Below, one piece after another: positions 5,601 to 31,057 of a DNA stretch of 64,000 nucleotides (the stretch's first letter is position 1; each line of letters opens with the position of its first letter). The translations under genes were made by a program, and so were the position numbers. The notes under the pieces are model-generated. The model ran no database searches, was not told the origin of the DNA, and saw only the letters and a program-made list of their open reading frames with translations. Origin of the DNA: an uncultured bacterium (lineage in GTDB: Bacteria > Omnitrophota > Omnitrophia > Omnitrophales > Aquincolibacteriaceae); contig CAYLPP010000004.1 in assembly GCA_964385615.1 (NCBI GenBank), forward strand, positions 39,494 through 103,493, in the 5' to 3' direction.

Positions 5601-5858
5601 ATGCTCGACAAGATTGCTCTGGTGGCGGCGATTGCTCTGCCTCTCTGGAATATTCCTTTGATGATCAGGATTGTTCAGAGGAAATCTTCAGCAGATATCA
5701 GTTTAATGTGGGCCCTGGGCGTTTGGGTTTGTATTATCCTGATGGCGCCTTCTGGCATCAAATCCACGGATTTCGTCTGGAAGGTCTACAATATCGTCAA
5801 CCTCTTCTTTTTTACCGGTGTTGTCGCCACCGTTTTGATTTACCACAAGCGTAAGTAA
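5601..5858 (+). CDS. Small 3-TM membrane protein, possibly a PQ-loop/SemiSWEET-like or lipid-A-biosynthesis N-terminal-domain family member
   Basis: An 85-aa protein with three hydrophobic helices and a conserved-looking VQRKSSADIS loop after TM1. A GAGGA ribosome-binding site lies 7 nt upstream. Confidence 0.4.
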   Translation: MLDKIALVAAIALPLWNIPLMIRIVQRKSSADISLMWALGVWVCIILMAPSGIKSTDFVWKVYNIVNLFFFTGVVATVLIYHKRK

Positions 5859-6056
5859 TTCTCGGCCAATCGGCCGATCCTCCCTTAGACATTCTTTTTA
5901 CACTTTCCACTTTAAAACCGTCTCCGCACGGTGTTCAGAAATTTTCCTAGCGGTATGATTCCCCCATGAAGCCGGTTTTGTTGAAAAAAATTCGCTGGGC
6001 AGCAATCGCCCTTTTTTTAGCAGGGGTTATCTGGCTGTTACATCAATGAGCGGATT

Positions 6057-6397: not shown

Positions 6398-6781
6398 ATG
6401 GCGGATTCGGCTAAACCCAGGGTTTTAGTCATTGATGACGAGATTGATGTGCTGTTGATGACCCGGGAGTATTTTGAACTTCGAGGCTATCAGGTTTTTA
6501 CGGCTCTTGACGGCGAGACAGGACTGCTGATTTGCCGTTATGAGAATCCCAAACTGGTTCTGGTGGATTATAAGCTCAAAACCTGTGACGGGGCTGAACT
6601 CATTCGGAGCTTAAGGAAAACATCAAACTCACTGAAAATTTTCGTGATTTCAGCGCATCAAGAAGAGAATATGGAGCGCCGGGTCACCGGGCTGGGAGCG
6701 GACAAGTATTTTGAAAAACCGGTTTCGATTATTGAAGTGGAGCGCGCGGCGCGTCAAATTTTAAATTTTCAGGCTTCCTGA
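6398..6781 (+). CDS. Stand-alone CheY-like response regulator receiver domain
   Basis: Has the receiver hallmarks: VLVIDDE acidic pocket, LVLVDYKL phospho-acceptor Asp, and conserved Lys in YFEKPV. It is 127 aa with no output domain. Confidence 0.8.
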   Translation: MADSAKPRVLVIDDEIDVLLMTREYFELRGYQVFTALDGETGLLICRYENPKLVLVDYKLKTCDGAELIRSLRKTSNSLKIFVISAHQEENMERRVTGLGADKYFEKPVSIIEVERAARQILNFQAS

Positions 6782-8472
6782 TTGATTCTCAACCCTTGAA
6801 CGGTCAAAGCCCATAAAACAACGGCCCCGGCGCAAAAGATCGTGCCCCGTAAGGGATGATTCAGCAAAAGGTCCAGAGGTCCGAAAGTGGTCAGAAGCAG
6901 GGCCGCTGTAGCGTAAAGCCAAAGCTTCAGGCTGGGAATCCAGTTGGACGGAACGCTTGAAACGGATTTCCAGAATCCGGGCGGACGGACTTTTGCCTGA
7001 AACGCGGTCAGAACGGAATCTTCGCAAGGTTTTGTCATGAAAGTCGCGGGAAGCCAGAAAGCCGCGGTGCCCGCAATCATAAAAATAAGATCCGCGACGG
7101 AAGATTCAGGAATGCCCGTGAATTCGAAAAAGAAAGGCCGGGCGAGAAGAACGGGAAGACTTGCTGCCATGGCCGCGATTTCACTCGCCGGATTAATTCT
7201 TCGCCAGAACCAGCGCAGAAAATAAACCGGGCCGATTCCCGCCGTCAGGTTTAAAACCAGGGTGAAGACGGCACCGATACTGTCGGTCATGAAAGCTACG
7301 GCCGTGGCCGCCGCGGCAAGAAGCAGGGAAGTCAGGCGCGCGACGGCAACGTAATGTTTCTCAGAGGCCCCCGGTTTAACGAACCGTTTCCAGAAATCAT
7401 TAACAAAATAAGAAGACCCCCAGTTTAAATGGGTGCTCATCGTGGACATGAATGCCGCGAAAAAGGAAGCCACCATTAATCCCCGAAGTCCTGAAGGTAA
7501 AAGCTGGGAAATCAGACGGGGATAAGCTTTTTCGTGATCGGTTAAGTCCGGAAGAAGAATCAGAGAAGCCAGGGCCGTTAGAATCCAGGGCCAGGCACGC
7601 AAGGCGTATTGGGCGATATTGAACCAGAGCGTCGCGTAAATGGCCTGCTTTTCATTTTTGCAGGAAGCAATTCTCTGAACAATAATTCCGCCTCCGTCCG
7701 TGTTTTTCCAGGCCCACCACTGAATGCAAATCAATCCCAGAAACCAGCCGAACGGAGAAGCTAAAATTTCTGAAGGCGTGTGCCCGGTCATGGGCGGGAT
7801 CAAAGCCAGTTTGCCGGTCGGGCCCAGTTTTTCCACAATCACATGAAGGCCGCCGCAGGCATTCACGGCGTAGAAGGCCAGAATAAAAGCTCCAGCCATC
7901 GCGACAATAAACTGAAACATATCGGTCAGAATAACGCCCCAGTAACCTGACATGCAGGAGTACGCGGCGGTTAGAGCCATGCAAAAAAGGACGGATTGCG
8001 CTTTATTCCACGAAGTGGTTTCCTGCATGACTTTAGACAGACCGGTGACCGGCCAGGCGCCCATGATAAACGCGTTATAAAAAATGCCCCAGTAAAGCGC
8101 TTTAAAGCCCCGCAGAAAAGCCGCAGATTTTCCGCTGTAGCGGAGTTCCACAAATTCGACTTCTGTCAGAACTCCGGCCCGTTTCCAGAGTTTTGAGAAA
8201 AAGAAAACCGCGAACATGGTAGAAATCGCCAGCGCCCAGACTTCCCAATTTCCCCAGATGCCTTTACGGCGCACGATGCCTGTGATTAGAAGCGGAGTGT
8301 CGGAGGAGAACGCGGTCGCGGCCATGGAAGTTCCGGCCAGCCACCAGCCCAGAGAGCGGTCGGAAGCGAAAAAGGATTCCATGCCCTTGCCGGCTTTTTG
8401 GGTCAGCAAAAGGCCGAGGGCGACACTGGCCAGGCAAAAACCGGCGACAATCAACCAGTCCAGCAGGCTCAT
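6769..8472 (-). CDS. Sodium:solute symporter (SSS/SSF) family transporter
   Basis: A 567-aa polytopic membrane protein with SSF-like N-terminal helices (MSLLDWLIVAGFCLASVALGLLL...GWWLAGTSMAATAFSSDTPL). Its start overlaps the anmK stop by 4 nt. Confidence 0.8.
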   Translation of the reverse strand: MSLLDWLIVAGFCLASVALGLLLTQKAGKGMESFFASDRSLGWWLAGTSMAATAFSSDTPLLITGIVRRKGIWGNWEVWALAISTMFAVFFFSKLWKRAGVLTEVEFVELRYSGKSAAFLRGFKALYWGIFYNAFIMGAWPVTGLSKVMQETTSWNKAQSVLFCMALTAAYSCMSGYWGVILTDMFQFIVAMAGAFILAFYAVNACGGLHVIVEKLGPTGKLALIPPMTGHTPSEILASPFGWFLGLICIQWWAWKNTDGGGIIVQRIASCKNEKQAIYATLWFNIAQYALRAWPWILTALASLILLPDLTDHEKAYPRLISQLLPSGLRGLMVASFFAAFMSTMSTHLNWGSSYFVNDFWKRFVKPGASEKHYVAVARLTSLLLAAAATAVAFMTDSIGAVFTLVLNLTAGIGPVYFLRWFWRRINPASEIAAMAASLPVLLARPFFFEFTGIPESSVADLIFMIAGTAAFWLPATFMTKPCEDSVLTAFQAKVRPPGFWKSVSSVPSNWIPSLKLWLYATAALLLTTFGPLDLLLNHPLRGTIFCAGAVVLWALTVQGLRINQEA

Positions 8473-9533
8473 CGTGTTATTTTTCCGAGGATAACAGCGT
8501 GTTTCGCGCCGGTGCCCGCGGGGCAGTGATTGACTTTGCCTTCCAGCGCCCGAAGAGCGAAAAAAGCGAACGCTGCAGGCTCCTTGGCTTGCGCCTCGAT
8601 ACCTGATTTTTCAATTGAGAGGACCGGAACGGGGGTCAGCAGATTTTTCAGGTGTTTCATCAGCGTAAGATTTAAAGCTCCGCCTCCGCTGACAAGGACT
8701 TCCCGAACCGGCGGGAGAAAAGCCTGGTAACTTTCCTTGATTGAAAACGCCGTGAAAAAAGTCAGGGTCGCCAGGATGTCCGCGGGTTTTTGCTTTTTAA
8801 GAGAAGCGGGAATAAAAGTCTCATTGAAAAGTTCACGGCCCGTGGATTTCGGCGGAAGTTTTTTAAAATAAGTATGCCTGGCCATGGCTTCCGCGGATTT
8901 AAAATCAATCTTACCTCCGGCCGCGATTTGACCGCCCTTGTCATAGTTTTTCTTGAAGTATTTTCGTGCCGCCCAATCCATGAGGCAGTTGCCGGGACCG
9001 GTATCAAAAGCGATCAGTTTTTTTCCGCCGGCCAGGGTGACATTTCCGATACCTCCGATATTTTGCAAAGCGCGCGGTTTATCTCCGAAAAAGAAGTCGT
9101 CAAAAAAGGGAATGAGCGGGGCCCCCTGACCGCCCGCAGCGATATCGCGGGGGCGGAAGTCCGAAACCACAGGGATCCCGGTTCTTTCAGCCAGATAAGA
9201 AGGTTCTCCGAGTTGAAACGTATGAGCGGGTTTTCCGGACCCGGCATGAAACACGGTATGACCGTGAGACCCGATGACTTTAATTTTTCGCCCAGGAAAT
9301 TTTTTCAGGAAACGGACCGCGCATTGAGCGAAATAAAGACCCAGTTCAGCGTTTAAGAGAGAAAGTTCCGGAGTCTTAAGATGGACGGCGCTGTTAATTT
9401 TTTTGGAAAGAGATGAAGGGTAAGGATAGGTGAGACAGCCCAGGGTTTTAAATTTGCGGCCGGTGAAATCGGCCAAGGCCAAAGACACTCCATCGCCGGA
9501 GGTGCCGGACATCAGGCCGAGAGCAAGCGTCAT
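8469..9533 (-). CDS. anmK: Anhydro-N-acetylmuramic acid kinase
   Basis: The N-terminus GLMSGTSGDGVSLAL and the ~354-aa ASKHA-fold size are typical of AnmK. Its start overlaps the murQ stop. Confidence 0.85.
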   Translation of the reverse strand: MTLALGLMSGTSGDGVSLALADFTGRKFKTLGCLTYPYPSSLSKKINSAVHLKTPELSLLNAELGLYFAQCAVRFLKKFPGRKIKVIGSHGHTVFHAGSGKPAHTFQLGEPSYLAERTGIPVVSDFRPRDIAAGGQGAPLIPFFDDFFFGDKPRALQNIGGIGNVTLAGGKKLIAFDTGPGNCLMDWAARKYFKKNYDKGGQIAAGGKIDFKSAEAMARHTYFKKLPPKSTGRELFNETFIPASLKKQKPADILATLTFFTAFSIKESYQAFLPPVREVLVSGGGALNLTLMKHLKNLLTPVPVLSIEKSGIEAQAKEPAAFAFFALRALEGKVNHCPAGTGAKHAVILGKITR

Positions 9534-10432
9534 TTTTCCAGAAGAGCTCTTTTAAGAAAACCGCGTGTTTTTTTCAGCGCGGCAACGGCTTTCGGGCGGG
9601 GCCATTTTTTACGGGCCATTAAAATAGCGACTTTCACCTTCTTGCCGGACTGCTTCAGATAAATTTCCGCCCGGTTTTCAGGAACCTGGCCCAAACGGCT
9701 GATCAGGCGCAGCGCGCGCGCCTCCAGTTTTTTGGACCGGGGCTGGAGGTCAACCATCCAGTTCTGGTAAACCTTTCCCAACTGGACCATGGTGCCGACA
9801 GTCAGCATATTCAGTACCAGTTTGGTCGCGGTGCCCGCTTTTAAACGAGTGGAACCACTGATGACTTCGGGGCCGGTTTTGACGGCGATCACGCAGTCAC
9901 ATAAATTTTTAAGCAGGGAGCCGTCCGCGCAGGTGACCAGAATCGCGGATGCGTTTTTTTCTTTCGCGGCTTGAAGCGCACCTTTAACAAAAGGAGTAAC
10001 CCCGCTTGCGGCAATGCCGACTAGAATATCCCCGGATTTCATTTTTTTGCGGAAAATTTCCAGCCCGTCTTCTAATTTATCTTCAGCGCCTTCCTTAGAA
10101 CGAAAAACCGAACTTTTTCCGCCCGCCATAACCGCCTGAATTAATGAGGGCGGGGTGTTAAAAGTCGGAGGACATTCCGCGGCTTCGAGAACGCCGAGAC
10201 GTCCGCTGGTGCCCGCGCCGGCAAAAAAGACGCGCCCGCCGTTTTTGACGGCTTTCACCATAAGTCCGACGCCCCTGGCAATTTGTTTGCGGGCTTGCGC
10301 GACTTTCAGAGGAACGCTCTGATCTTCACGGCTGATCAGTGTCAGGATCTTTTCTGTGGAAAGGGTGTCGATAGCGCGGGTGCGCGGGTTGGCCTGTTCG
10401 GTCAGCAATTTTCCGTAATTTACTTTTTTCAT
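9530..10432 (-). CDS. murQ: N-acetylmuramic acid 6-phosphate etherase. The start was chosen at MKKVNYG; the tabulated ORF extends to 10450.
   Basis: SIS-domain motifs (FFAGAGTSGRLGVLEAAECPPTF, GSTRLKAGTATKLVLNMLT) align with E. coli MurQ from memory. Confidence 0.85.
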   Translation of the reverse strand: MKKVNYGKLLTEQANPRTRAIDTLSTEKILTLISREDQSVPLKVAQARKQIARGVGLMVKAVKNGGRVFFAGAGTSGRLGVLEAAECPPTFNTPPSLIQAVMAGGKSSVFRSKEGAEDKLEDGLEIFRKKMKSGDILVGIAASGVTPFVKGALQAAKEKNASAILVTCADGSLLKNLCDCVIAVKTGPEVISGSTRLKAGTATKLVLNMLTVGTMVQLGKVYQNWMVDLQPRSKKLEARALRLISRLGQVPENRAEIYLKQSGKKVKVAILMARKKWPRPKAVAALKKTRGFLKRALLEK

Positions 10433-10453
10433 GCGGGGGCAGAATAGCATATA

Positions 10454-11974
10454 ATGCGCGCCATGTCCAAAGACCTCCGGGGCCTAGTCGGCGAACAAAT
10501 GATGATCGGCGTGGCAGGGCCGAAAATGACTTCCGCCATGAGAAAACTGGTCCGGAAAATCAGGCCGGGCGGGATTATTTTCTTCCGCCCGAATTTTGCT
10601 TCCGCCAAAGCTTTCCGTAAACTGGTTTCAGATCTTGAAGACGCCGCGGGTAAAAAATTAGTGACCGCGGTTGATCATGAAGGCGGCCGGGTCATTCATT
10701 TTAATGAGGGAGTTACGGTTTTCCCCGACAATCTGGCTGTCGGCAATACCCGCAAAGAAAAATACGCCGCCCAGCAGGGTGAAATCGAAGCCCTTGAGCT
10801 TAGAAAACTGGGGGTGACTCTGAATTTGGCACCCACCGCTGACGTGCTTCGTGAAAATTTCAGCCCGAATATCGGCATCCGTTCTTACGGTAAAGATCCC
10901 GGTCTGGTTTCCGCTTTTGGAACCGCGCGGATCAAAGCCATGCAGGCCGGGGGAATTTCGGCTTGCGCCAAACATTTCCCGGGGCAGGGGCAGTCGACCC
11001 GCGACGCGCATCTTGACCTGCCGGTTTTATTTTCAACCCATCAGGAAATGGAAAAAATTCACCTGGAGCCCTTTCGCGCGGCAATCAAGGCCGGGGTTCG
11101 CGCCGTGATGTCGTCGCATCCCATTTATCCGAATCTCGACAGAAAAAGACAGCCGGCCACATTTTCAAAAGAGATTATTACCGGACTTTTGCGGAACCGG
11201 CTCGGTTTTCAGGGCGCGGTTTTGAGCGATGATCTGGAAATGGGCGCTCTTAAAGGAATCTGCCCCATTGGTGAATCAGCCGTACGCGCAGCGGAAGCCG
11301 GGCATGATATGGTTTTGATCTGTCATGACGTCAAAGCGCAGGAGGAAGTTTTTGAAAGCCTGCTCAAAGCTTATGAAAGCGGGCGCCTCGATCCCTGGTC
11401 GCTTGAAAAGAGTCTTGTCAGAATTGACGCTCTGCGCCAAGAGGCACCGGCTCGAAGGGATGCTTCTAAAAAACACAATCGGGAATTTTCAGAAGCGCTT
11501 CCCTTGAAGATTTCAGAAGAAGGGGTCCTTCGGTCGGCGTCTCACGCGGGTTTCGGTTTTAAGAAAGGAGAGACGGTTTCGGCGGTCTTCCCGAAACTTT
11601 CCGAATTGGCGGGGCGTATCATGATTGAAAAAGAAATGCTGAACGAAAAAGCATTTGTGCTCGGGCTTTTCAAAGAGCGAGGCTGGAAACCCGGGGAGAT
11701 ACAAGTTCTTCCTTTAAAAATTTCCGGAAAGCTTCAGCCGGAAAAAAAGAAAAAAGCGGGCAGCGCTATTTTCTTTTGTTACGACGCGTATCTGGATGAA
11801 GGCACCCGTGTTTTTTTAAAGGAATTTCAGAAAAATTGGGAGAAGCCGGCCGTGGTTCTTCTGCGCGACCCTTATGACATTGATTTTATCGACAAGAAAA
11901 CCGCGTGCGTGACGGCTTTCGGTTTTCGTGCCTCTCAAATCCGCGCGGCTTTAAATTTATTGGTTCAAAAATGA
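10454..11974 (+). CDS. nagZ: Beta-N-acetylhexosaminidase, GH3 family (NagZ-like), with a C-terminal extension
   Basis: GH3 catalytic-region motifs KHFPGQGQSTRDAHLDLPVL and ILFRPNF. The 506-aa length is longer than the ~340-aa NagZ core. The exact start is uncertain (10454, 10463 or 10496). Confidence 0.8.
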   Translation: MRAMSKDLRGLVGEQMMIGVAGPKMTSAMRKLVRKIRPGGIIFFRPNFASAKAFRKLVSDLEDAAGKKLVTAVDHEGGRVIHFNEGVTVFPDNLAVGNTRKEKYAAQQGEIEALELRKLGVTLNLAPTADVLRENFSPNIGIRSYGKDPGLVSAFGTARIKAMQAGGISACAKHFPGQGQSTRDAHLDLPVLFSTHQEMEKIHLEPFRAAIKAGVRAVMSSHPIYPNLDRKRQPATFSKEIITGLLRNRLGFQGAVLSDDLEMGALKGICPIGESAVRAAEAGHDMVLICHDVKAQEEVFESLLKAYESGRLDPWSLEKSLVRIDALRQEAPARRDASKKHNREFSEALPLKISEEGVLRSASHAGFGFKKGETVSAVFPKLSELAGRIMIEKEMLNEKAFVLGLFKERGWKPGEIQVLPLKISGKLQPEKKKKAGSAIFFCYDAYLDEGTRVFLKEFQKNWEKPAVVLLRDPYDIDFIDKKTACVTAFGFRASQIRAALNLLVQK

Positions 11975-13263
11975 ATAAAAAACAGCTGGGTTTCTGGGAC
12001 TCAGTCGCGATTAACGTGGGGATTGTCATTGGCGTCGGTATTTTCCGCACGCCTGGAGAAATTGCCGGCTATGTGGATTCCACTCCGCTGATTCTGCTGA
12101 CCTGGGCGCTAGGCGGTTTGGTCGCAATGGTGGGCGCGCTTTGCTACGCGGAGCTGGCCGCGTGCTACCCTCAAACCGGCGGAACCTACGTTTACTTAAG
12201 GGAAGCTTACGGCCGGCCTTTCGGGTTTCTTTTCGGCTGGGTGGAATTCGCGGTGATGCGCCCGGGGTCGATCGCGGGGGTTGCTTATATTTTGACGAAT
12301 TACCTGGGGAATTTTGTTCCCGCCGCGGCTTCGCATGAAAAACTTTTCGCCATCCTAATGATTCTTTTCTTTACGGTTCTCAATATCCGCGGGCTTCACG
12401 TGGGGAGCGGAGTGCAGAATATTCTAACGGTTCTTAAAACTGCGTCCATTGTTCTAATGACGGGAATTATTTTTTGGAAGCTTGGGCTTCCGTCAGCCGG
12501 AGGGCCTGTTTTTTCGAGCGTGACCGGAAAAAATCTTATGGGTATCGCACCCGCGCTGATTCCGGTCATGTGGACGTACGGCGGCTGGCATCAGAGCACT
12601 TTTATCGGCGGAGAATTCAGGGACACCAAACGGGATTTGCCCCGATCTTTGGTTATGGGGGCCTTGATCGTCATGGCGCTTTACCTCATGATCAACGCGG
12701 CTTACCTGCGGGTTATGACGCCTGCTGAAACCGCGGGAACGAAAGCGATCGCTTCGGAAATTTTTTCCAGAATTTTTGGAACGCCTGGCGGAACTGCCGT
12801 GACGATTGCTGTTTTAATTTCCGCCGCGGGGGCGCTCAATTCCACGATTCTGACGGGAGGGCACATTCCCTTCGCGGTGGCGGGGGATTATCCCAAGCTT
12901 TCCTGGGTCGCGAAAATTGACGCGAAATTTCATACCCCCCTTCAATCTCTGGCCGTTAACGGGATTTGGGCTTCCGCTCTGGTTCTTTGGGGGAATTTTG
13001 ACCAGCTTCTTTTTTTCTTCGCGTTCGCGAACTGGCTCTTTTTTACGATGGCCGGGATTAGTGTTTTTGTTTTGAGAAAACGCGATCCCGAAAAAGTTAA
13101 AAAATCCATGCCGGGTTACCCCTGGGTCCCCGTGATTTTTATTCTATCTTCAGCGGTTCTTTGCCTGATCACCATCCGTACCGCGCCCTTTGAAAGTCTC
13201 TTCGGCGCCGGTTTAATGCTGTTGGGCTTACCGGTTTATGCTTTATTCAGGAATAGGGAATAG
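11971..13263 (+). CDS. APC-superfamily amino acid/polyamine permease
   Basis: About 12 TM segments with APC-like N-terminal motifs (VAINVGIVIGVGIFRTPGE, GGLVAMVGALCYAELAA). Its ATG overlaps the nagZ TGA (ATGA). Confidence 0.8.
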   Translation: MNKKQLGFWDSVAINVGIVIGVGIFRTPGEIAGYVDSTPLILLTWALGGLVAMVGALCYAELAACYPQTGGTYVYLREAYGRPFGFLFGWVEFAVMRPGSIAGVAYILTNYLGNFVPAAASHEKLFAILMILFFTVLNIRGLHVGSGVQNILTVLKTASIVLMTGIIFWKLGLPSAGGPVFSSVTGKNLMGIAPALIPVMWTYGGWHQSTFIGGEFRDTKRDLPRSLVMGALIVMALYLMINAAYLRVMTPAETAGTKAIASEIFSRIFGTPGGTAVTIAVLISAAGALNSTILTGGHIPFAVAGDYPKLSWVAKIDAKFHTPLQSLAVNGIWASALVLWGNFDQLLFFFAFANWLFFTMAGISVFVLRKRDPEKVKKSMPGYPWVPVIFILSSAVLCLITIRTAPFESLFGAGLMLLGLPVYALFRNRE

Positions 13264-13447: not shown

Positions 13448-16400
13448 ATGCCTCGATTTTTAAGAGCCGCCGCGTTTACGGTTCTTCCTCTATTTATATG
13501 GAGTCAGATTAGCTGGGCCAACCCGCTTTTGGCGCAGTCCGGGGGAGAAGTGCGCCTGGAGACTCCGCAGATATCTGATTTTTCAATTCCGGAAAATCTG
13601 GGGAAAATACAGTTTGAGCATCCAGGATCCGGTCCTGCCATCATTCATATTCAAACGGCCCACGGAAATTATGGCGCAGAACAAAAAATAAGAGACCTGC
13701 TGGAGTATTTAAAAAAACGTTACGGCTTCAAACTTCTCTTAGTCGAAGGAACCGCTTCAAAACTTGAACCGGAACGCTTGAGTTTTTTTGGAAAAGAGAA
13801 ATCGCTGAGCCTTGAGACGGCTGAAAAATTGACTCGTGAGGCCCTCATGAAAGGTTCTGAGCTTTTTTTGATGGAAGAACCCGGCATGGAAGCTTACGGC
13901 ATTGAAAACCGGGAAGCGTATGTATCCAATGGTGAAGCGTTTCGGGCGGTGCTTACGGAACAAAAGGCTTCCGGGAAATTCCTCAGCGGGATGGATGAGC
14001 AGATTAACCGGTTATTGGCGGTTTTTACAGAGTCGTCTTTCCGCGGTTTTTTGTCCGAAATGCAGCGTTTTGAATCCGGGCAGGGCTCGCTCGCGGACTG
14101 GCTGGGATATCTTAAAAGTGTTACCGCAAAAAATTCAGGTTTAAACCTTGAAGACCCGGCTAATCAATTTGACTGGCCGATGCTGACCCGCTTCTTTAAA
14201 CTACAGGAACTTGAAAAGAAATATCATTCCGGCTCTTTCCGCGAGGAGCTTCCCGGCTTCCTGGCGCGGCTCCAGGGAATAAGTCCGGAATTATCCTCTC
14301 AGGCTGAAAAGTTATTTTCCGCGGAAAATATGCGGGTCCATCTGCCGTATCCTCAGACCGGTGAATTATTTGAGGCTATCGCGCGTGTTTTGCCTGAAGA
14401 CTTCAGCATTGACGCTTACCCGAATGTGAAAATCCGTGCGGCTTTTTTGATCCTCCAAAGTGAATTAAGCGCGGAAATGCTCATGAGAGAAACCGAAAAG
14501 CTTTCGGAGCTTGCTTCGGACGGGCTTGCCCGGACGGAAGATCAGAGGAAGATCTATGGGTTTTACCGGGACTATCTTTTGCTGACGAAACTTTTCGCAC
14601 TGAATGTCACGCCTGAGGAATACGGCTTAATTTTAAAACGCCGTGAAGCGCTGAACCCGGAAGCTTTGGCCGAAGAATTCCGGAGGCTGAACTCGGGAGG
14701 GCGTGTCCGTGATTTGAAGTTCGAACATTTGGCTGAAATATGTTCGCTATTTGAAAAATCGCTCGAATTTTATAAAGGGGCTAAAGAGCGTGACGCTTTA
14801 ATGATTCAGGGGGTTGAGCGGAGGTTAAAGGAAACCGGAGCGGACAAGGCAGTGGTGATTACCGGCGGGTTTCACGCGGAACCGTTTCAGGATTATTTTT
14901 CTTCTCATGGGTTTAATTATGCGCGGATCATGCCGGAGATTACAGTTTTAGGCGGAAGGGATGCCTATGTGGAAGCCGTTCTGCAGAGCCAGCCCCGCCT
15001 TTTTTTCGCATCGACCCGTGAAGTGCCGTTTGCTTTCGCTTCACCGGAAGCTCTTTTGGAAATGGATAGAAATGCTTATCTGGGCTCGCTCGACCGGCTG
15101 GTACGGGCTGAGCTTGAAACGGCTGAAGATTCCGGGGACTTAAAAAATATTGAGAAAGCGAATTCAAACGGCCGTTTATTCGGGATTCAATATCAAGCCG
15201 GTTCAAAAAATGTGACTGTGAGCGCGGATGGAAAAAAATTCACGGTTCCGGTTTCACTTCGTCTGAATTTAAATCAGACTCGGCTCCTTCAGCGTTCCGA
15301 GTTGAGGGTGGACGTTGAGAAACTTAAAAACGCCGCGACTAAAGATGAAGCGCTGCGTGATCTTTTGAGCACTCTGGTAAGCGGAAGCGATGACAGGCAG
15401 CGTTTGTCGGCCTATCGGATCCTCACGGGAGTTTTTAGACGGGGCTCGCATAGAGATGAGATTTATCAGCATTTTACGGATAATGACCGCCGAAAAATCC
15501 GGGAGCTGATGTTCCACGCTTTTTTTGATCCCGATCACCGGATCCGTCAAGACCTGGGGTACAACCTTTACGGAAGCCTCAAAGATTTGGCTTCAAATGA
15601 TGATCTTATGGATTATCTTGCCAGGGCCGACGTTTATCAGCCGGGGCATTTAAATGAAGCCGAGGAATTTGTTTCCTGGGAAGTTTCCGGTCAGGAACCT
15701 CGTTTGAGCCCTGAGGAAACTTACAGCCTGGCCACGCAGAAATACATGGGTAAAGAAGCCGTTCTTTTCGCGATTTCCCGGCGCATCCATTTTTCTCACG
15801 GGAATCCTGACGAGCCGTACTTTCAGGGAAAAATACAGGAGGCCGACGGGGATTTCCGGGCCGCTTTGAAGTGGTTTAATCCGGAAATTCTTCAAGACTC
15901 AAAATTCCCGATCGCGCGAGCGATCCACGCGGCTCTTTTTGAATTTGCGCGTGAGGAAATGGTCGAGAATCATATTCCCGCTTCCTTTCTTATTCCGGAT
16001 CAAAAGACGCATTCGGTGAAAAACTGGAGGCTTGAAATGATCCGGTGCGTGATGGGAGATGCCTACACTCCGTGGATTTCGGCGATGGTGAGTCTCTATG
16101 CTTCGTTTATCGCAGAGCATCAAGCGGTTTTAGGGCGCGAAAGTATTGGACTCAGCTTTCAGGAAATCCGGAATCGCAAGACCGGTACGGAAAAACCGAT
16201 TTTGTATGGACCGGTTAAGGCAGTTCTGGCGGGCGATGAGAATAAATTGGCGTATATCGCCGCCCGGAGTCTAGAGCATAAGAGTTCCAGCGGGGCCGAC
16301 ATCCGGGAAGGGTTGACTGTTCTGGAAGGATACCGCGAACTGCTCGCGGAAAATGGTTTTGACTTCGGCGACGCGATTCGAGTTTCAATCCGAAAAATGG

Positions 16401-19400
16401 GCACGCTTTCTAATTTAATAAACCGGAATTTCCTGAGCGCTTCGCGAGATGAAATAATGGGACCTCTTTTGGAGATTCAAGAAGATTTGAGAAGACTTTT
16501 AGAGCTCCTGACGGCGGAGGAACCGAAAATTCGGGGACGCAGTGAGGAGCTGATGCGGGGCAGTGACAAAAGACAGGGTGCCCGGCTTCGGAAAAATTTC
16601 GAAGTTCTCACGGAGCAAACCCGGCTTCTTAAGGTGTATCTTGATGACCGGATTGCGTTCGCGAACAAAAGCTCTGAACCCGCGCGTACGGAAGTGGTGC
16701 CGGTTCTGGGCTTAATTCAGTCACGGCATGGTCAGAAACTGGTTATTGAGACTTCAGATCTTTCCGGGGTTTCCGCCGCTATCTCCCGCGTCCGGCTTTT
16801 CTCGATTCTCAATAATCTTGTTTCGAACGCAATTGAGGCCCAGGCGGAGTATTCTCAGGAACCGGTAACTGTTCGAGTTTCCTTGGAAAAAGAGGGGATT
16901 CTTTTTGAAGTTCAAGATCACGGACCTGGTTTTCCTTCGGATTATTTTCAGCCCGGTGAAAATGGAATCCGCTTATTTGATCTGGATGAGAGGAAAGGGC
17001 TGGGATTGGCTGAAGTCTGGGCGACTACGGCCCTGGCTTCAGGGTTTCTGGATGTCATTTCCAAAAGCGGGAAAGGCTCCACAATCGGCGTGACAATTCC
17101 TCGCTCAGAGGTACGCACTCAAACATCCGAAGCCCCAGTCATTCAGGATTTAATCATTCCCGGTGTTTCGGCTAAAACACTTGGGGTTTCACCTTTGAGC
17201 CGGATTAAGGTGTGGAGGCGTAAACCGGTGCGGGGGAATCCTTCTCTGGTCCGGAGTAATGACAATCTTTTAGTGGTTGAAGCAAAAATGGCGAATGAAC
17301 TGAAAGCTTTAGACCAGATATGGGCGCGTATCGTGCTGCGTCTTGATAATCCGTCCGCGGAAGAAGTGGAAGGGATGCGGGTTATGGCGGAGGTCATTGA
17401 ACGCGTAAAAGTCCGTATCCGGCTTGAACAGAGGAAAAGCCAGGAAATTTTACGTGAGATTATGGGGTTTGAAGGAAGCGGGGGTATTTCAAACCCTAAA
17501 GCCCGCGAAATCGTTGAGAAAGAACTTCTTCCTGACTTGGAAGATCGTGATGAATTTCTTTTTTTGAGCGCTGCCGAAGAAGTCAAAGGCGTTTCGCTTG
17601 AAAAAGCCCGCACCGCGATTACCCGGCGGTATCAGACCTTGGCCATGATTAAGCTCTACCAAATTATTTTAAATCTGCCTTATGGGTTCCACACAGAAAG
17701 CGATGACGTGATTCAAATGCAAAGAAACCTGGCCGCATCCCGTAAGGATGAACTGGAAGCTGAAGTCCCGAGGATTTTAAGCGCGATTGAAAAAGGATCC
17801 AGCCCTCGTGCCGCCGTTCAGGAATCCATCGAACGTATCAAGATCAGAATCCGGGATCTTGACCGGGAGATTAAAGAGACTCCCAGCAGTGAGGACCGGA
17901 CGTCACTGAAAACACTGCGGACAATCGCGGTGGAACAGATCGGGTACCTTGAAAAAGTGGGAACCTCTTACGATGTTTACGAATATCTTTACGAGCCTCG
18001 TGATCCGGAGGATGTTAGAAAAGAAAAAATTAGCAACGAAACAAAACGTCATGTTCAGCTTGCCCGGACGGCGGGCGATGAATTCCCGGAGCTTAAACGG
18101 CGGGGATGGTCTCTGAAGACGATTTGGTTTTATGTGTTTTCATCAACAGCCTGGGTTTTTGGCCTGCATTTTTGGGCTGTTCGGTTTTTCCGTAAGAATC
18201 CTGATTTTTTTCTGAATTGGTTTAACGCTTACATCCGCAACGAGATTTCCAAAGGCCGGCCGGTTCAATACGCCGCTGCCAAGTTTTTCTATGAAAACCG
18301 TGAGCTGGCCGCGAAAAGGGATTCGCTGTTCTGGCCTTTTTTGATGCGTTATTACGATCTGGCTGAATATGGTCACGCCCGCAGAGAATCTGGTGACCCG
18401 GTCATCGTTTTTGCCGAAGAGATTCACGACGAATCGGATTATAACCGCCTGATGGCGAGTTCCCGGGGTCACGGGAAAATCGCGGCGATTGTCGCGCCTA
18501 AAATGGAAGGGGAAATGAGAATCCCTCACTGGTTTATTTACGCTAAGAAGGAAAATATTCTCGTTCTGACTTCTCTGGATTTAAGAAAAGCGGGGATCCG
18601 GCTGGAGGATCTTGAAAAGGCTGATGGGGAAGAGTACGAGGGGATGGTGGACGCGAAACGGGGGGTTCTGGTGATTAATCCCTCCGTGGAAACTCAGCTG
18701 GAGTGGCAGAGTAAGGGAGAAACTTACGAGCTCCAGGATAAATATTATTGGAGCCGCGCGCGTAAGCAGACCATTTTTAATCTGACTCAGATTGAGTACC
18801 TCGCGGATGAAACCAGCCTTGAAGCCATTGAATGGATGGATGGTCAACCCTCCCTGCTTTACCGCTCCGGCGCGAGCGGGGTTGGTTTATTCCGTCTCGA
18901 AGAACTTTTGACCGCTCAGATGGACCGCGCGGGTATTGAGCGCGATCCGGCGCGTATTCAGGCCGCGGGGTCGGAAATTCTTGGTTATCCGGAATTTGAA
19001 AATGGCCAGGTTTTTACTATCAGACTTAATGATGTGAGCGTGGACAAAAGACCTCAATTCCTTGTGGATGGCGCTAAAGGTTTGCGCGGATGGGATATGG
19101 ATGAAATTATCCGGACGATGTCCGGAGCCCGTTTTTACTTGAACCGGGAAAAGTATCCGGAATTTTATGAGTTCGGGAAAATGCAGTTAAAAGCCATTTT
19201 CGCGGCTCATTTACGCAAAGGTATCCGGCGTTCAGGGATTAAGATTTTGATTTCTGATGTCCGGAATGCTTCAGAAATCGAGGCGCTTGAAGCTTTGCTT
19301 TTGGACGCGAAAAAAGAATTTATCGAAGAGGTTATCATCGGTACTTCTGCGGACCTTTCCGCGAGACTTCACTACGAGGATATGACCCAGCTTCTCTCGA

Positions 19401-22400
19401 CACTCAATCCGGATGAAATCAGCGATGCGATTGAAAGAATCCCGATTGGTTACATGTATGAAGATACCACGGCGATTGAAAATGAACGGGAAGCCATGAC
19501 CCGAAAAGTAAAGGAATTGTCAAAAACCCATTGGCGCGAAAGGTTTTTTGGAATTGGTTCCAATGATTTGAGCAAGTCGATTAATAAAGACCGCATGGGC
19601 GGAACGATGGCGCTGGATGAGTTGAGTCCTCTCCTCGTTCGGGATATCTGGCTCGCCGCCAAATCGGCTCAAAGAGAAAATATTCCGGTTAACCTGGAAG
19701 GGGAGTTGGGCGGGTCCAAACCGATGGCTTTTATTCTTCTGGCTTTGCAGGAACTCTCTGGAGGGGTGAGGATCACTCCAGTCGCCGCGACCGCGCAAAT
19801 TCCTGAATTGAAGGAGCTGGTTCGTGAGCATGTAGAGATAAGTGATTTTACGGAACCCTTGCGGGGGCAAAAATATTCCTTGGCAGAGCTTTTAGAGAAG
19901 ATCAGGGCTCCTTCTTTTGACTTGAGTCAGTTCCCGCTGGAGGACTGGAAATCAATTTTAAATCAGCTGGTTTCTACCGTAGAGGCCAGAATTTTCGGAA
20001 GCGATGATTTTAATCATTTTGCCCAGCAGATTTCCGACGGAGTTGCTCCGGAAGACGCGGAAATTCAAGCTCCGAAAGAAGCTGGATATTCCCGTGTGGA
20101 AAGTTTGGATGACGGTAGAATCCGGGAGGATAGATTATACGCGGTCGGCGCCTATGCTTTTCATACAACGCCCAACCAAAAAATTATGGTATGGCTCGCG
20201 GCGCATAGAAATGTGCGCGCGGTTTACGGTAAAGGGGACGCCGACCCAATAACCGAGCTTTATGAGTTTAATTTTATCAATATTCTCACGGTCAGAATTC
20301 TCCGCAAGCAGAAAATGTTTTTTAGGGTTGAAGGCCCTGAAGCCGAGGTGAGGGAATTTTATGAATTAATCGATACGATGGTGGAATATGACGGCATGAC
20401 CAGCACATTTTCGCCCGCGTCCGGACGCTCTGAATTAAGAGTGAAGGCCGCTCCTCAGCTTCCCTGGGATGAAATTGAAAAAGCCCAGCAGGATTTTCGC
20501 CTAAGGCTCGCGGATCCGTCTTTAAAAGACGCGGTATTGCGGGAAATTTGGAATAACGTTCTTAACGGTCCGGATGAGCTCACCAGGGCCGCGAGCTATT
20601 ACATTCTCGCGGACTTCTTTACCCAGCCTGATTTATTTGCGGGAATTATCGGGAACAAGGAAAGGCTTTTTACGGGGCGGGTGCTCTTAAGTTCTTATTT
20701 CGACCCTTCAAAAAATATTCGAATGCCTTTAGCCAGCAACAACGCCGCGGAAGAGGTTTATGAGGCGGTCCCGGATAAAGCTTTGCTTGAACTGCTGAAT
20801 CAGACGGACGCTTATCCTTTTTTGAGAGTTAACGGCAAAAATGAATTGGAAACGATTAGCACGGGGGCTGACCCCCGCCTGGGTCCCGGTGCCGTGTTCA
20901 GTCCGGAGCTTCGGGCTTATTTCGCGAAAGAAGCGATTTTGTTCACTCTGTACCGCCGTTTAGCTAACAGTTCCAGCGGAACCCCGAAATTCATTCAATC
21001 TGAAATCGCGGCTGCACAGGCGGACCTTGATAAAGCTCAAACGGCTCATGATCCTTCTATTCTGGAAAATTCAAAATCTCCGATTTTAAGGGCCGTAGGC
21101 GCCGTGCTTTTTGAGTACCTGCGGGACGAGTACGTTGAGAATGGGGTTAAAAATGGACAAAGACTGATCGGCGAAAGTAATTGGGGGATCGCGGGCCGTT
21201 GGCGGTTAAATATGATTCAGGAAATTCTTGGGCCCGCTAACAAGGCCGCCGTGAGAGAAATAGCATGGGCCTATCTGGAATTTATTCGCCAGCACGAAGC
21301 TCATCTGGGGCCCGAGACCAGAGGTTTTGGCAGGGGCCGTTTAAGCCGCTCTGAATTGAGAAATGAAGAGCAGGGTAAATCGTTTGTTGAATTTCAGCGA
21401 TTCAGCCGGCTCCCGCGGATTGAGTCCGCGAAACTGCCGTTAGGATATTATATTCAATCCTCCGGACTCAATATTGCCGTGGTGGATGATCACCATAAAG
21501 TGGTGCCGATTTGGCGGGAAGCCCACGCACGGGGAATTATTCCGAAAAATTCTTCGCTGGTGCATATTGACGCGCACACGGATGATCTCTTTGTGCCGGA
21601 CAGTCTTAACGGTCTTGTTCCGCTCCCCTCGGGGATTTTAGACGGGGCTGTTTTGGCGGACTATTTGGAGCAAGTTAAACGGGGGATCGCGAAATATTAC
21701 CGGATTGGAACTTTTATCGCGCCGGAAGTTTTGGCCGGTCTAATTGATCCTGAAAAATGGTTCTTTATTAACTCGTTATCCAATCTTAGAAGCGGTCCGG
21801 GAAGATTTCAATTTCAATGGCGCGGAATTGGAGGTATCGAGATGCTTACGGCGGCTTATCCTTTCGCGGGTACTTTGGATCGAATTTTTAAGAATAATCA
21901 GCCGGATATCGTGAATTTCGACATTGATGTAATGGGAACGGAGGTTCACGTTTTCCGGAGCCTCTTCCGCGTTAAACTCTTCCGGTTTTTGGGAGATCAA
22001 AAAGCAGATTCAGCCCAGGAAATCCTCGATTTGCTTTCAAGAGATCCGGAACTGAAAGCGAAAGGTTTTAATTTAGCCGGCGGAAGATATTCAGAAATCG
22101 TGGAAGCCTATTTCCGCTCTGACAAGAAAACGCCGGTTTTGATTGAGCTGGAAAAGAGTTTGGCAGTGGAAACCGTTTTAGCTCAATGGTTTCCGGTTTT
22201 GCTTCCGCTTCTCTCTAGAGCTAAGCTGATTACGATTGCGACCAGCCCGGGCTATATCGACCAGGATGACGCTTTAAGAATTGTTAACCGTCTTCTTCCC
22301 GAATTAGAACAGTATAAGATTAGCGGAGTTTTGACCGTGTTTCCAGAAAGGGAGAGAGAGGAAGGCGCGGGAGAACTTCCTTTTGAGCAAAGAGCCCGCG

Positions 22401-23692: not shown

Positions 23693-26600
23693 ATGAAAAA
23701 ACGGGACGGCAGACTCGTAAGGAAAACAAGCGCGGCCATTACGGCCGCGTGTTTTATCGCCCAACAGATTTTTGCACCCGCTGTTTCTTCTGCCTCCGAA
23801 GTTCAGGAAAGCAGTCTCCGAGTTCCCTCAATTGAAATTCCCGCTGAAATAGGTTCCCTTGAAACCTCAGGGATTTTAGAAGATCAAAAGCCCATGATTA
23901 TTCAGGTTCAGGACGCTCACGGAAATTATGACGCTCAGAAAAATATTCAAAAAATTCTCCAGCATCTTACCGCCTATGAAGGCGTCGACCTTGTTTTGCT
24001 CGAAGGCGGAAAAGGCCCGCTTCATCCCGAAATCCTGAATTTTTTACCAAGACGTCCTGATTTGAATCTGGAAATCGCCGACCGTCTGGCTCAGCAATCT
24101 GAACTGAGCGGAGCGGAGATTTTTCTTCTAGACCGGTATTTGGCGGGGAAGACTCTTGCCGCATTTGGGATTGAAAACGCTCCGGCTTACCGGGAGAACC
24201 GTGAAGCTTTTCAAAAAGTTCTGCGCGCCCGGGAGCAAAGCGGAAATTTCTTAAAAGATATGGAAATGCAGATTGACCGCCTGACGGCGCCTCATGTGAA
24301 TCCTCAGCTCAAAAATTTTCTGCGCAGTTATGAAGCTTATGAATCACGGCAGATGGATTTGACGGTATGGCTCCGCCAGCTTGAGGAGCTTTCACGCAAG
24401 CACTTGGGCTTGGACCTGGATTTAGCCGGAAGTCAGAAAGACTGGCCGATGCTCACCCGGTATTCCCGCCTGCGTAAACTCGAACCCAAACTTGATAAAA
24501 CGCGTGTTGAAAACGACAAAACGGCGATGCTTCAAAAACTTAGGTCGCTCAATGTTTCTAAAGCGGTGATTGAGGCTTTTGACAATGCCGTGAATATGGC
24601 CCCGGATAACGGTGTTCAGGCTTCTCAAATTGTGAAAGCTGTTGAGAGTGTGATGGAAGCGGTTCCTTCCGATTTTTCTTTTGAACCCTATGGGTTCCTG
24701 AAAGCTTGGATTCAGTTTGAAGTTTTTCAGCGTGAGCTTAATGGAGAAGCTTTATTCGCGGAGGTCAGCAAACTGGAAGATCTTCTCTCAAATCAGCTGG
24801 CCAGAACCGAAACCGAGAAAAAACTTCTGGCCCTCTTTAAAGATTACCGTGCTCTAAACAAACTTTTCGCTCTCGAACTTACCCGGGAAGATTATCAGAA
24901 TATCCAGCGTTCTGAGGACACGATGACGCCTTCGGCCATCGCCGGACGGTTTTCAGCGGTCAATAAAAACAAGCAGGTCCGCGACACGCAGTTTATTCAT
25001 TTAAAAGAACTCGACGCTCTTTATTCGCTCGCGCTTAATTTTTACCGCGGAGCGCTTGACCGCGATCATTTGATGGCGGACAACATTTTGGAAACTATGC
25101 AGGCGCAGGGGAAGCGCCGGGCGGTTGTTGTGACCGGCGGGTTTCATTCAGAAGGAATGCAGGAATACTTTCAATCCAAGGGTTTTTCTTACGCGCGGAT
25201 CAGCCCGCGAATTCAGGAGCTGGGTGACAACAAAGCTTATATCCGGGCAATGCTGGATGAAGATGTTGAAATTAAAAAATCGCAGGTCGCGGATATCCTG
25301 GTGGAACAATTCGGGGAAGTTCAGCTGGAGCTGGGGAGCGCCAGCCACTTAACCCGCAAGGACGCAGTCATTTACCGGGTCATGCGGGATGTCGTTGAAC
25401 ACGCGGGCGCGCGCTCAGAAATGCGCGGACGGCGTGATTGGATTTACGGTATCGGGCTTGTGACCGCGATCGGTTTAGCGGCTTATGCCGCGTTTAGACC
25501 CTTGCCTGTCAATCCGCCGGCTCAGCAGGATGTGCCTGCAAAAGTCGCGGAGCTAGAACCTAAACCGGTTCAGCAGGAGAAGAAGGTTGAAGAAAAAAAG
25601 CCCGCTCCGATTCCTGAAGTGGTGCCGCTGCCTCAGCCTGAAAAGAAAGCTCCAATTGTTAAAATAGATGAGCCTGTGATTGATAAGGCCGAAACGCTCC
25701 GTGTTTGGGGTAAGCGGGAAGTGCCTAAAATTTCTCCTGAAAAACTCGAGGCTCTTGTCACTTCAGATTTAAACGCGGAACAGATCCGGTATTTGCTGAA
25801 ATACGATAAGCGGTCGAAACAGCTTGAGTCCGCGGGAGCGGGAAAAAACACGGTTTGGAGTATTGAAGCCGGTGTCCGTCATATTACAGAAGCTAAGCTG
25901 AATAAGGCGGAGAAGGCGGAGTTTGAAGCGACGAAAGGCGCGATTGAAGAGTTTTTGAAAGAACTGAAAGAAGACGGCGCTTTTAAAGAAGGGCAGACCG
26001 CTCTGGATCTTTATTACTTTTTCTTCCGCCCGCTTTTTGTGGTGCAGGACCGTCATGGAGCTGCCGCCGCGAAGTGGGTGGTAGAAATGCAGATTGCTTA
26101 CTTTACGGTTAAGAATAATTTTGAGATCAACCTGAAAGGGTTAACTGAAAAATCTTTGAGCGCGACTTATATCCGCACCATTGAGGACTATCTGAATGCT
26201 GATGAGTGGAAAGCTAACGGCGGGGAACGGTTAAAAATCGCGTTCGCGCTTTCTATTTTATACGCGCAGATGGATAATTATAAACAGGTGATTTGGCGTA
26301 ATCACGACTGGTCAAAATTCAAAAGGCTTGAGCTTCCGGCTGAACTCGAACTCTACCGCTTTTACGGCGAAAAAGGGCTCGGCAAAGATGCGTTGGAACG
26401 CATGGAGCTCGAACTTAAAGCTGAAATCCGCGGCCCCAGACCCCTGGGAAAAAATAATGCCTGGAACAACCGCCCGAATCTCCCCCAACGTTATGTCGGC
26501 CTTTACGAAGAAGTTTATTCCAGGACCTGGTATTACTCGACCATGCACCGTGAGCGTTTTTACCGGCCCGGAGATTTCCGCCTCGGAGCGACTCCGAATC

Positions 26601-31018: not shown

Positions 31019-31047
31019 CTTTTATAATGAAAGAACTGTGATATAAT
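31019..31047 (+). promoter_or_regulatory. Candidate typA promoter with an extended -10 (TGaTATAAT at 31039-31047). A second TATAAT lies at 31023-31028.
   Basis: Sequence motif only. The leader is short or absent, and there is no clear SD before the ATG at 31058. Confidence 0.3.
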
Positions 31048-31057
31048 CCCCGGCTCT

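Follow-up and report, generated by a model that had tools for sequence, protein, structure and literature searches.

We analysed a 64-kb window of genomic DNA (64,000 nucleotides of contig CAYLPP010000004.1, from an uncultured bacterium of the Omnitrophota; positions refer to this window unless another locus is named), in which murQ, anmK and a gene of the sodium:solute symporter (SSS) family lie on the minus strand, divergent from nagZ on the plus strand. We consider it reasonably probable that this divergent operon pair salvages sugars from peptidoglycan turnover and that the SSS protein acts as the importer. The protein would provide the uptake step, as a Na+-coupled symporter of the inner membrane with a LeuT-type fold and an SGLT-like architecture. 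Its cargo would be a peptide-free sugar, namely free 1,6-anhydro-N-acetylmuramic acid (anhMurNAc), the disaccharide of N-acetylglucosamine (GlcNAc) and anhMurNAc, or both. Cytoplasmic NagZ would cleave GlcNAc off the disaccharide, AnmK would open the anhydro ring and phosphorylate the sugar to give the 6-phosphate of N-acetylmuramic acid (MurNAc), and MurQ would remove D-lactate from the latter to yield GlcNAc-6-phosphate. The transporter would thereby fill the slot that is occupied elsewhere by AmpG of the major facilitator superfamily (MFS), MurP of the phosphotransferase system (PTS) or MurT of Tannerella forsythia.

The map of open reading frames (ORFs) and the reading of the junctions agree on the layout proposed in the first-pass annotation, a minus-strand murQ-anmK-SSS operon with overlapping genes, divergent from nagZ. 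Both junctions, read directly from the sequence, are 4-nt ATGA overlaps (...AAAATGACG between murQ and anmK, ...CGATGAGC between anmK and the SSS gene), and the downstream genes would be translated through coupling at these overlaps.

The three enzymes are assigned with confidence. AnmK reaches equivalog level with model NF007148 (400.9 bits, cut-off 387) and matches PF03702 with an E-value of 1e-98 over residues 4-353 of 354. MurQ does so with TIGR00274 (317.6 bits, cut-off 302), and in an alignment with Escherichia coli MurQ and relatives its residues E86 and E117, both invariant, occupy the positions of E. coli E83 and E114, which we take to be the two catalytic glutamates. NagZ scores 224.9 bits with NF003740 (cut-off 207), matches PF00933 with an E-value of 8e-70 and contains the motif KHFPGQG...DAH (sequence KHFPGQGQSTRDAH). 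Its N-terminus, MSKDLRGLVGEQMMIG, has no hydrophobic leader, and its homologues likewise lack a signal peptide. The protein also has ~175 additional C-terminal residues (~330-503; positions 11450-11974 of the plus strand), for which a Pfam search gave no match; some Omnitrophota homologues align across this region and others end at about residue 326.

Conservation of the murQ-anmK-SSS unit

Operons of the order murQ-anmK-SSS with a divergent GH3 gene nearby are present in relatives at 69% and 60% identity. Moreover, when one genome was scanned for each GTDB species, 32 loci of the transporter family, with 41-80% identity, were recovered from Omnitrophota and Planctomycetota. Their neighbouring genes were typed by tblastn with the enzymes of the window, and 29 of the 32 loci have usable upstream sequence. 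anmK lies directly upstream of the SSS gene in 25 of these 29, and it is preceded by murQ in every such locus in which the contig extends that far. The gene directly upstream is nagZ in two further loci (L022 and L029), and none of anmK, murQ and nagZ is found beside the SSS gene in L021 and L030 (2/29). In the Planctomycetota loci without anmK (L029 and L030) the neighbours are uninformative. nagZ is divergent in most Omnitrophota loci, and in several loci of the Planctomycetota type (L025, L032 and L045) it is inserted into the operon, which then reads murQ-anmK-nagZ-SSS. The linkage extends to two more clades with 41-43% identity, in which the orders are murQ-anmK-x-x-nagZ-SSS (L129) and anmK-nagZ-SSS (L130). 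Linkage with anmK and murQ, which the first-pass annotation had singled out as the feature to look for in other genomes, and also with nagZ, is therefore kept down to ~41% identity. Since dozens of independent genomes show this gene order, the arrangement is not a matter of chance. Furthermore, the murQ-anmK-(nagZ)-SSS core persists while its surroundings change completely between loci, which identifies the core itself as the conserved unit.

We also surveyed 80 loci in a metagenome scan centred on MurQ. The same SSS family is found beside murQ in five of them (L040, L041, L044, L045 and L054), MurP in three (L056, L097 and L116), and an AmpG-like MFS protein with 26% identity to E. coli AmpG in L102, where the order is ampG-murQ-anmK-nagZ. 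Small ORFs beside murQ that had been taken up as candidates for MurK or a transporter proved to be GidB, an aminotransferase, an M50 peptidase and others. Finally, the scan revealed a second SSS subfamily of ~500 residues (Table 1), which is 22-26% identical to the window transporter and forms a separate branch in the tree. Like the window protein, its members are of the PF00474 type, adjacent to murQ and uncharacterised. Judged from sequence, this second subfamily seems to have been recruited independently to the catabolism of MurNAc or anhMurNAc. That non-orthologous transporters replace one another in the same conserved slot of the operon is the pattern expected of an uptake step.

The adjacency might also have been kept for reasons unrelated to function, for instance as an inherited gene order within one superphylum, in which case the role of the transporter would have nothing to do with peptidoglycan. 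All syntenic loci indeed come from related lineages (Omnitrophota, Planctomycetota and their neighbours), and other clades of the family show no such association. Against this stand the persistence of the core amid wholly different surroundings, with its start-stop overlaps retained, its rearrangement into forms in which nagZ is divergent, inserted or directly coupled, and the recruitment of an independent SSS subfamily to the same operon elsewhere. We regard mere inheritance of gene order as very unlikely.

In one of the relatives (L001, 12169-17755) murQ-anmK-SSS lies ~2.5 kb from a dcw cluster (ftsA, ftsQ, ddl, murB and murC), and the presence of this cluster shows that such organisms synthesize MurNAc de novo as well. 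In the window, a gene for a stand-alone response regulator receiver protein of 127 aa (6398-6781, plus strand) runs towards the SSS gene, with the 13 nt at its end shared with the region of the SSS stop codon. A receiver gene is also found just upstream of murQ in L001 and L002.

Family, predicted fold and putative cargo of the transporter

The transporter matches PF00474 over residues 34-429 (E-value 1.7e-41, 142.9 bits, gathering score 22.8). It scores 154 bits with TIGR00813, below the cut-off of 184, which marks it as a divergent member of the SSS family. Its scores with the models of characterised permeases are far below their cut-offs (PutP, 72.9 bits versus 515; PanF, 62.7 versus 328; PRK10484, corresponding to YidK, 79.7 versus 401), and the ActP models gave no match with it. 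Identity to E. coli PutP, PanF, ActP and YidK amounts to 23-28% in alignments that are only partial. In neighbour-joining trees, which are indicative only, the transporter falls into a large subfamily of its own, apart from these four proteins. A HMMER scan of 1.84 billion representative proteins yielded 741 clusters (50% identity) with an E-value below 1e-30. Among them, the top 150 show 35-63% identity to the query, with most at 36-48%, and score above 270 bits, as compared with ~40-80 bits for any characterised SSS protein. Invariant in the subfamily are, for example, the motifs AATAFSSDTPLLxTGxxRR and QWWAWKNxDGGG, and family-invariant polar residues are D58, R68, E77, K256, N257, D259, Q266 and R267. 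The named relatives of the transporter are metagenome-assembled genomes of Omnitrophota, which points to this phylum as the most likely origin of the window.

The closest sequences in the PDB are vSGLT and human SGLT1 (E-value 1e-22), followed by CHT1, SiaT and NIS. An AlphaFold2 model built with 59 relatives (pLDDT 86.9, pTM 0.87) retrieved SGLT2, SGLT1 and vSGLT as top matches in Foldseek, with TM-scores of 0.70-0.73 at ~20% identity, and then SiaT, NIS, CHT1, SMCT1 and DUR3. In the model the transporter thus adopts the LeuT-type fold known from vSGLT, SGLT and SiaT. S343 and T344 align with S364 and S365 of vSGLT, and D184 with D189; all are invariant in the 59 relatives. We take S364/S365 to be the hydroxyl pair of the Na2 site in transmembrane helix 8, and D189 to be the conserved aspartate of helix 5. 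The invariance of these residues makes Na+ coupling of the transporter plausible.

The first-pass annotation had put the SSS protein forward as a candidate alternative importer, a proposal to be abandoned if the protein clustered with known permeases and lacked synteny. The protein stands apart from PutP, PanF, ActP and YidK and its synteny is conserved; together with the coupling to anmK, this makes the import of a cell-wall sugar, namely MurNAc, anhMurNAc or a fragment that contains it, the best reading of the sequence data. To our knowledge, anhMurNAc is the only known substrate of AnmK, and the linkage of the transporter gene to anmK, frequently through an overlap of codons, speaks for an anhydro-sugar as the cargo. 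NagZ, which has no signal peptide, is the product of the gene directly coupled to the transporter gene in L022, L029, L130 and L129, and this argues that GlcNAc-anhMurNAc reaches the cytoplasm. AmpD is missing from all loci, and AmpD, LdcA and Mpl are missing from the locus in the window, which suggests a cargo free of peptide.

Another small solute that feeds the pathway or is co-regulated with it, such as GlcNAc, reducing MurNAc or another amino sugar or sugar acid, is an unlikely cargo in our estimate. It would agree with the closest structures, which are hexose and sialic-acid symporters, with the fact that E. coli MurQ serves MurNAc catabolism too, and with distant family members that adjoin unrelated glycosidases (e.g. 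GH67N/DUF4838 in L133). Yet the tightest and most conserved coupling is that to anmK, whose product acts on anhMurNAc. Moreover, no BadF/NAGK-type kinase (MurK) and no other kinase for MurNAc or GlcNAc was found in the window or in the related loci, so that either sugar, once imported, would lack a local step by which to enter the pathway.

It is also conceivable that the SSS protein imports no sugar at all and instead handles the D-lactate that MurQ releases, much as ActP and MctP carry acetate and lactate. That lactate handling can be clustered with recycling genes is seen in a Bacteroidales recycling cluster (L121), which contains a gene resembling D-lactate dehydrogenase. This we judge extremely unlikely: the ActP models are silent, BLASTP against E. 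coli ActP gives an E-value of only 1e-3 over 100 residues, export is not to be expected of SSS proteins, which are inward symporters, and the coupling to nagZ only, as found in L022 and L029, does not fit.

Several points weigh against assigning sugar import to the SSS protein. Members of the family at 36-40% identity (P0150, P0167 and P0269) have no peptidoglycan genes as neighbours, and P0121, at 47% identity and on a short contig, has unrelated ones; because distant members have other neighbours, the substrate specificity would be the property of one clade and not of the whole family. The source records label the SSS subfamily only as 'Na+:solute symporter'. A tblastn search that used AmpG of E. 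coli and the AmpG-like MFS protein of L102 as queries, and that covered the window and 442 kb of related loci, found no AmpG; the rest of the genome lies outside this search. With regard to the cargo, GlcNAc-anhMurNAc (~480 Da) is larger than any established SSS cargo that we know of, and free anhMurNAc would leave the cytoplasmic NagZ without an obvious supply. Either of the two, free anhMurNAc or the disaccharide, may be what is transported.

A broader proposal, on which we are evenly divided, is that a clade of this SSS subfamily is the main inner-membrane importer of anhydro-muropeptide sugars, possibly of the disaccharide, in Omnitrophota, Planctomycetota and their neighbours, where it would have replaced AmpG, and that the second SSS subfamily was recruited independently in other phyla.

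The murQ-nagZ spacer and neighbouring genes

The spacer between murQ and nagZ comprises 30 nt and reads catGCGGGGGCAGAATAGCATATAATGCGCGCCatg. The start codons lie ~21-30 nt apart (murQ ATG at 10432, nagZ ATGs at 10454 and 10463), with TATAAT at 10450-10455, as had been noted in the first-pass annotation. The latter called the spacing promoterless, whereas our promoter scan predicts two sigma-70-like promoters in it (Table 1). The predicted nagZ promoter (TTTTCA-18 nt-TATAAT) has 10/12 matches and is the best in the 7-kb region scanned, and in the predicted murQ promoter (TGGACA-17 nt-TATTCT, the latter at 10446-10441) the -10 box is preceded by TG. The earlier expectation that both promoters overlap coding sequence holds for the -35 hexamers, which fall into the first codons of the opposite gene, and fails for the two -10 boxes, which are placed back to back within the spacer. 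No Shine-Dalgarno sequence precedes the start of either murQ or nagZ. Since each -10 box ends 7-8 nt before an ATG, both mRNAs should be leaderless or nearly so, with the start sites of transcription being predicted ones.

We compared 23 loci, whose spacers of 30 to ~500 nt cannot otherwise be aligned. The sequence TGYTATNCT is found 6-12 nt before the murQ start in 17/23 of them, with a near-match in one more, and a TTG is conserved at -35 spacing. In several Planctomycetota loci the murQ start is preceded, at an equal distance, by -10-like boxes of other sequence. The 10-mer ATGYTATNCT has a single occurrence in the 64-kb window. The idea that murQ has a special regulatory motif ahead of it was considered and rejected, as the element resolves into an ordinary promoter with a -35 hexamer, a 17-nt spacing and an extended -10 box, and the conserved block gave no evidence of an operator across the loci. 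On the nagZ side, the closest relative (L033) has TATAAT followed by 7 nt and an ATG, and two others have TATAAT plus 9 nt (L005) and TAGAAT plus 7 nt (L024).

Alternative ORF starts exist for both genes (10450 for murQ, giving 306 aa, and 10454 for nagZ, giving 506 aa). E. coli MurQ and all relatives begin at the position equivalent to 10432, and the start at 10450 was rejected, as the six extra residues have no counterpart in homologues. NagZ homologues begin 5-9 residues ahead of the conserved VGQxLMxG motif. A nagZ start further downstream, at MMIGVAG, as suggested in the first-pass annotation, was rejected too, because it would delete the conserved N-terminal motif LxxxVGQxxMxG. By comparison of the sequences, 10463 fits best as the nagZ start. 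In L005 the ATG within TATAATG is out of frame, which leaves the downstream ATG as the nagZ start in that locus.

What speaks against 10463 is that the ATG at 10454, within TATAAT, is in frame and also present in L033; it is a possible start if transcription begins further upstream. One or both promoters might then lie inside the opposite coding region and produce mRNAs with normal leaders, with nagZ being translated from 10454, and TATAAT as well as TGCTATTCT would be incidental. This appears rather unlikely to us, given that the extended -10 box is fixed at 6-12 nt from the murQ start in spacers that cannot otherwise be aligned, that neither start has a Shine-Dalgarno sequence and that the corresponding ATG of L005 is out of frame. 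With predicted promoters of this kind, the murQ-nagZ spacer is compact but conventional. Similar arrangements occur elsewhere in the window: recN has TATCAT followed by 7 nt and an ATG (region 2380-2400), and bipA has TGATATAAT followed by 10 nt and an ATG (region 31035-31060). Such first genes, with a -10 box that precedes the ATG by 7-10 nt, contrast with most internal genes, which have GGAGG ribosome-binding sites. Leaderless first genes may be common in this organism. In L013 (~5760-5940) the box of the murQ promoter and an in-frame ATG are found ~150 nt upstream of the region homologous to the MurQ N-terminus, which suggests an N-terminal insertion or a repeat-rich leader in this MurQ.

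The gene downstream of nagZ encodes an APC-family permease, whose nearest models, an L-type amino-acid transporter and FrlA, all score under their cut-offs. Among the loci, its pairing with nagZ is shared only by L033, and it possibly forms a two-gene operon with nagZ. Directly downstream follow two very long ORFs of the plus strand (13448-23467, 3339 aa; 23693-30937, 2414 aa). In Pfam searches with the first 1000 residues of each, the former gave no match and the latter only a sub-threshold match. Both agree with a report that Omnitrophota tend to encode very long proteins (preprint 10.64898/2026.06.07.730766).

Table 1. Features of the locus (window positions), and transporter genes of other loci discussed in the text (positions within the locus named).
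Feature	Location	Strand	Remarks
SSS-family (PF00474) transporter, 567 aa	6769..8472	-	candidate Na+-coupled importer of anhMurNAc or GlcNAc-anhMurNAc
anmK, anhydro-N-acetylmuramic acid kinase, 354 aa	8469..9533	-	stop overlaps SSS start (ATGA)
murQ, MurNAc-6-phosphate etherase, 300 aa	9530..10432	-	start MKKVNYGKLLTE; stop overlaps anmK start (ATGA)
-35 hexamer TTTTCA, nagZ promoter (predicted)	10426..10431	+	overlaps murQ codons 1-3
Extended -10 TGCTATTCT, murQ operon promoter (predicted)	10441..10449	-	8 nt upstream of murQ ATG
-10 hexamer TATAAT, nagZ promoter (predicted)	10450..10455	+	7 nt upstream of ATG 10463
nagZ, GH3 beta-N-acetylglucosaminidase, 503 aa	10463..11974	+	without signal peptide; C-terminal extension of ~175 aa
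-35 hexamer TGGACA, murQ promoter (predicted)	10464..10469	-	overlaps nagZ codons 1-3
APC-family amino-acid permease	11971..13263	+	PF13520, E-value 6e-50; ATG overlaps nagZ stop (ATGA)
Second SSS subfamily member	L058 6840-8342		with anmK-murQ
Second SSS subfamily member	L100 6885-8360		with anmK-murQ
Second SSS subfamily member	L113 4042-5550	-	with murQ and NAGK-like kinase gene
Second SSS subfamily member	L119 4173-5705	-	with murQ and NAGK-like kinase gene
Gene immediately upstream of murK (MurT)	L120 182-1355; L121 6841-8004; L122 1156-2319		NagX/HGSNAT/DUF5009-like

Comparison with known importers and recycling systems

The first-pass annotation named AmpG and MurP as the known routes of uptake. 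This list was incomplete, as a third importer of MurNAc has been characterised in T. forsythia, namely MurT, whose gene belongs to a murT-murK-murQ operon. MurT has been described as belonging to the 'sodium symporter superfamily' (PMC5790795). Were PF00474 meant by this wording, the window transporter would be a plain homologue of MurT, and we therefore tested the MurT locus. It was traced with an 80-residue N-terminal stretch of MurK, taken from PDB entry 8oqw; the only matches to this stretch were short pieces of MurK, including one of 100% identity (contig L120). Besides this contig, MurT loci were found in L121, which comes from a 57%-identical relative, and in L122. The MurT gene (Tanf_08375) lies directly 5' of murK, whose start it overlaps, and encodes a membrane protein of ~387 aa. 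This protein has weak matches to DUF5009 and HGSNAT_cat and matches the NagX model NF046061 with an E-value of 7e-34 (117.6 bits versus a cut-off of 480). A frameshift, which probably reflects an error of assembly, splits the MurT gene of L120.

The MurT sequence does not support the wording 'sodium symporter superfamily', and the window transporter was rejected as a MurT homologue (BLASTP E-value 4.5; MurT is NagX/HGSNAT-like). No homologues of AmpD, MurP (searched by tblastn) or MurT were found in the window or in the 442 kb of related loci, and the window transporter and AmpG belong to different superfamilies (SSS and MFS). Thus, as far as sequence comparison goes, the transporter is unrelated to all three characterised importers, AmpG, MurP and MurT, and the correction concerning MurT ends up reinforcing the proposal that it is an importer in its own right. 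In the literature available to full-text search, no paper on an SSS-type carrier of MurNAc or anhMurNAc was found.

Peptidoglycan recycling is known mostly from Proteobacteria, Firmicutes and one Bacteroidete, and uptake is its least conserved step. A 2026 preprint on mycobacteria still speaks of 'an unknown transporter'. The SSS protein provides a concrete importer candidate for the branch that comprises the PVC group and Omnitrophota. If the proposal is true, it would represent a fourth mechanistic class of importer for peptidoglycan fragments, Na+-coupled and with a LeuT fold, beside the MFS protein AmpG, the PTS protein MurP and the NagX-like MurT. Confirmation would improve the annotation of many proteins that are now just 'Na+:solute symporter'. 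It would also bear on how the ultra-small, host-dependent Omnitrophota, which retain a full murein pathway, economise on wall sugars or scavenge them. Of smaller interest, the spacer offers a clean example of overlapping divergent promoters, as predicted here, for leaderless operons.

The locus shares with the AmpG-NagZ-AmpD-AnmK-MurQ pathway of E. coli a cytoplasmic NagZ, AnmK and MurQ, and thereby the route from anhMurNAc via MurNAc-6-phosphate to GlcNAc-6-phosphate. It differs in the transporter, which in E. coli is AmpG, an MFS proton symporter, and here an SSS protein with a predicted LeuT fold and probable Na+ coupling. Moreover, the recycling genes of E. coli are scattered, whereas those of the window are clustered and translationally coupled, and recycling of the E. 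coli type includes AmpD, which like LdcA and Mpl is absent from this locus. With the murT-murK-murQ operon of Tannerella the locus has in common that a secondary transporter outside the PTS, a sugar kinase and the etherase are encoded in one operon, but the Tannerella kinase is the BadF-type MurK acting on MurNAc and the one found here is AnmK acting on anhMurNAc. The MurP-MurQ system of E. coli is similar in that the transporter gene adjoins murQ, and according to RefSeq annotation MurP transports anhMurNAc too. MurP is a PTS EIIBC protein that phosphorylates its substrate during uptake, whereas the symporter proposed here needs AnmK as a separate kinase. Finally, SGLT/vSGLT and SiaT (SSS, TC 2.A.21) share the predicted fold and the Na2-site residues with the window transporter, which, at ~20% identity to them, belongs to a separate large subfamily with invariant motifs of its own.

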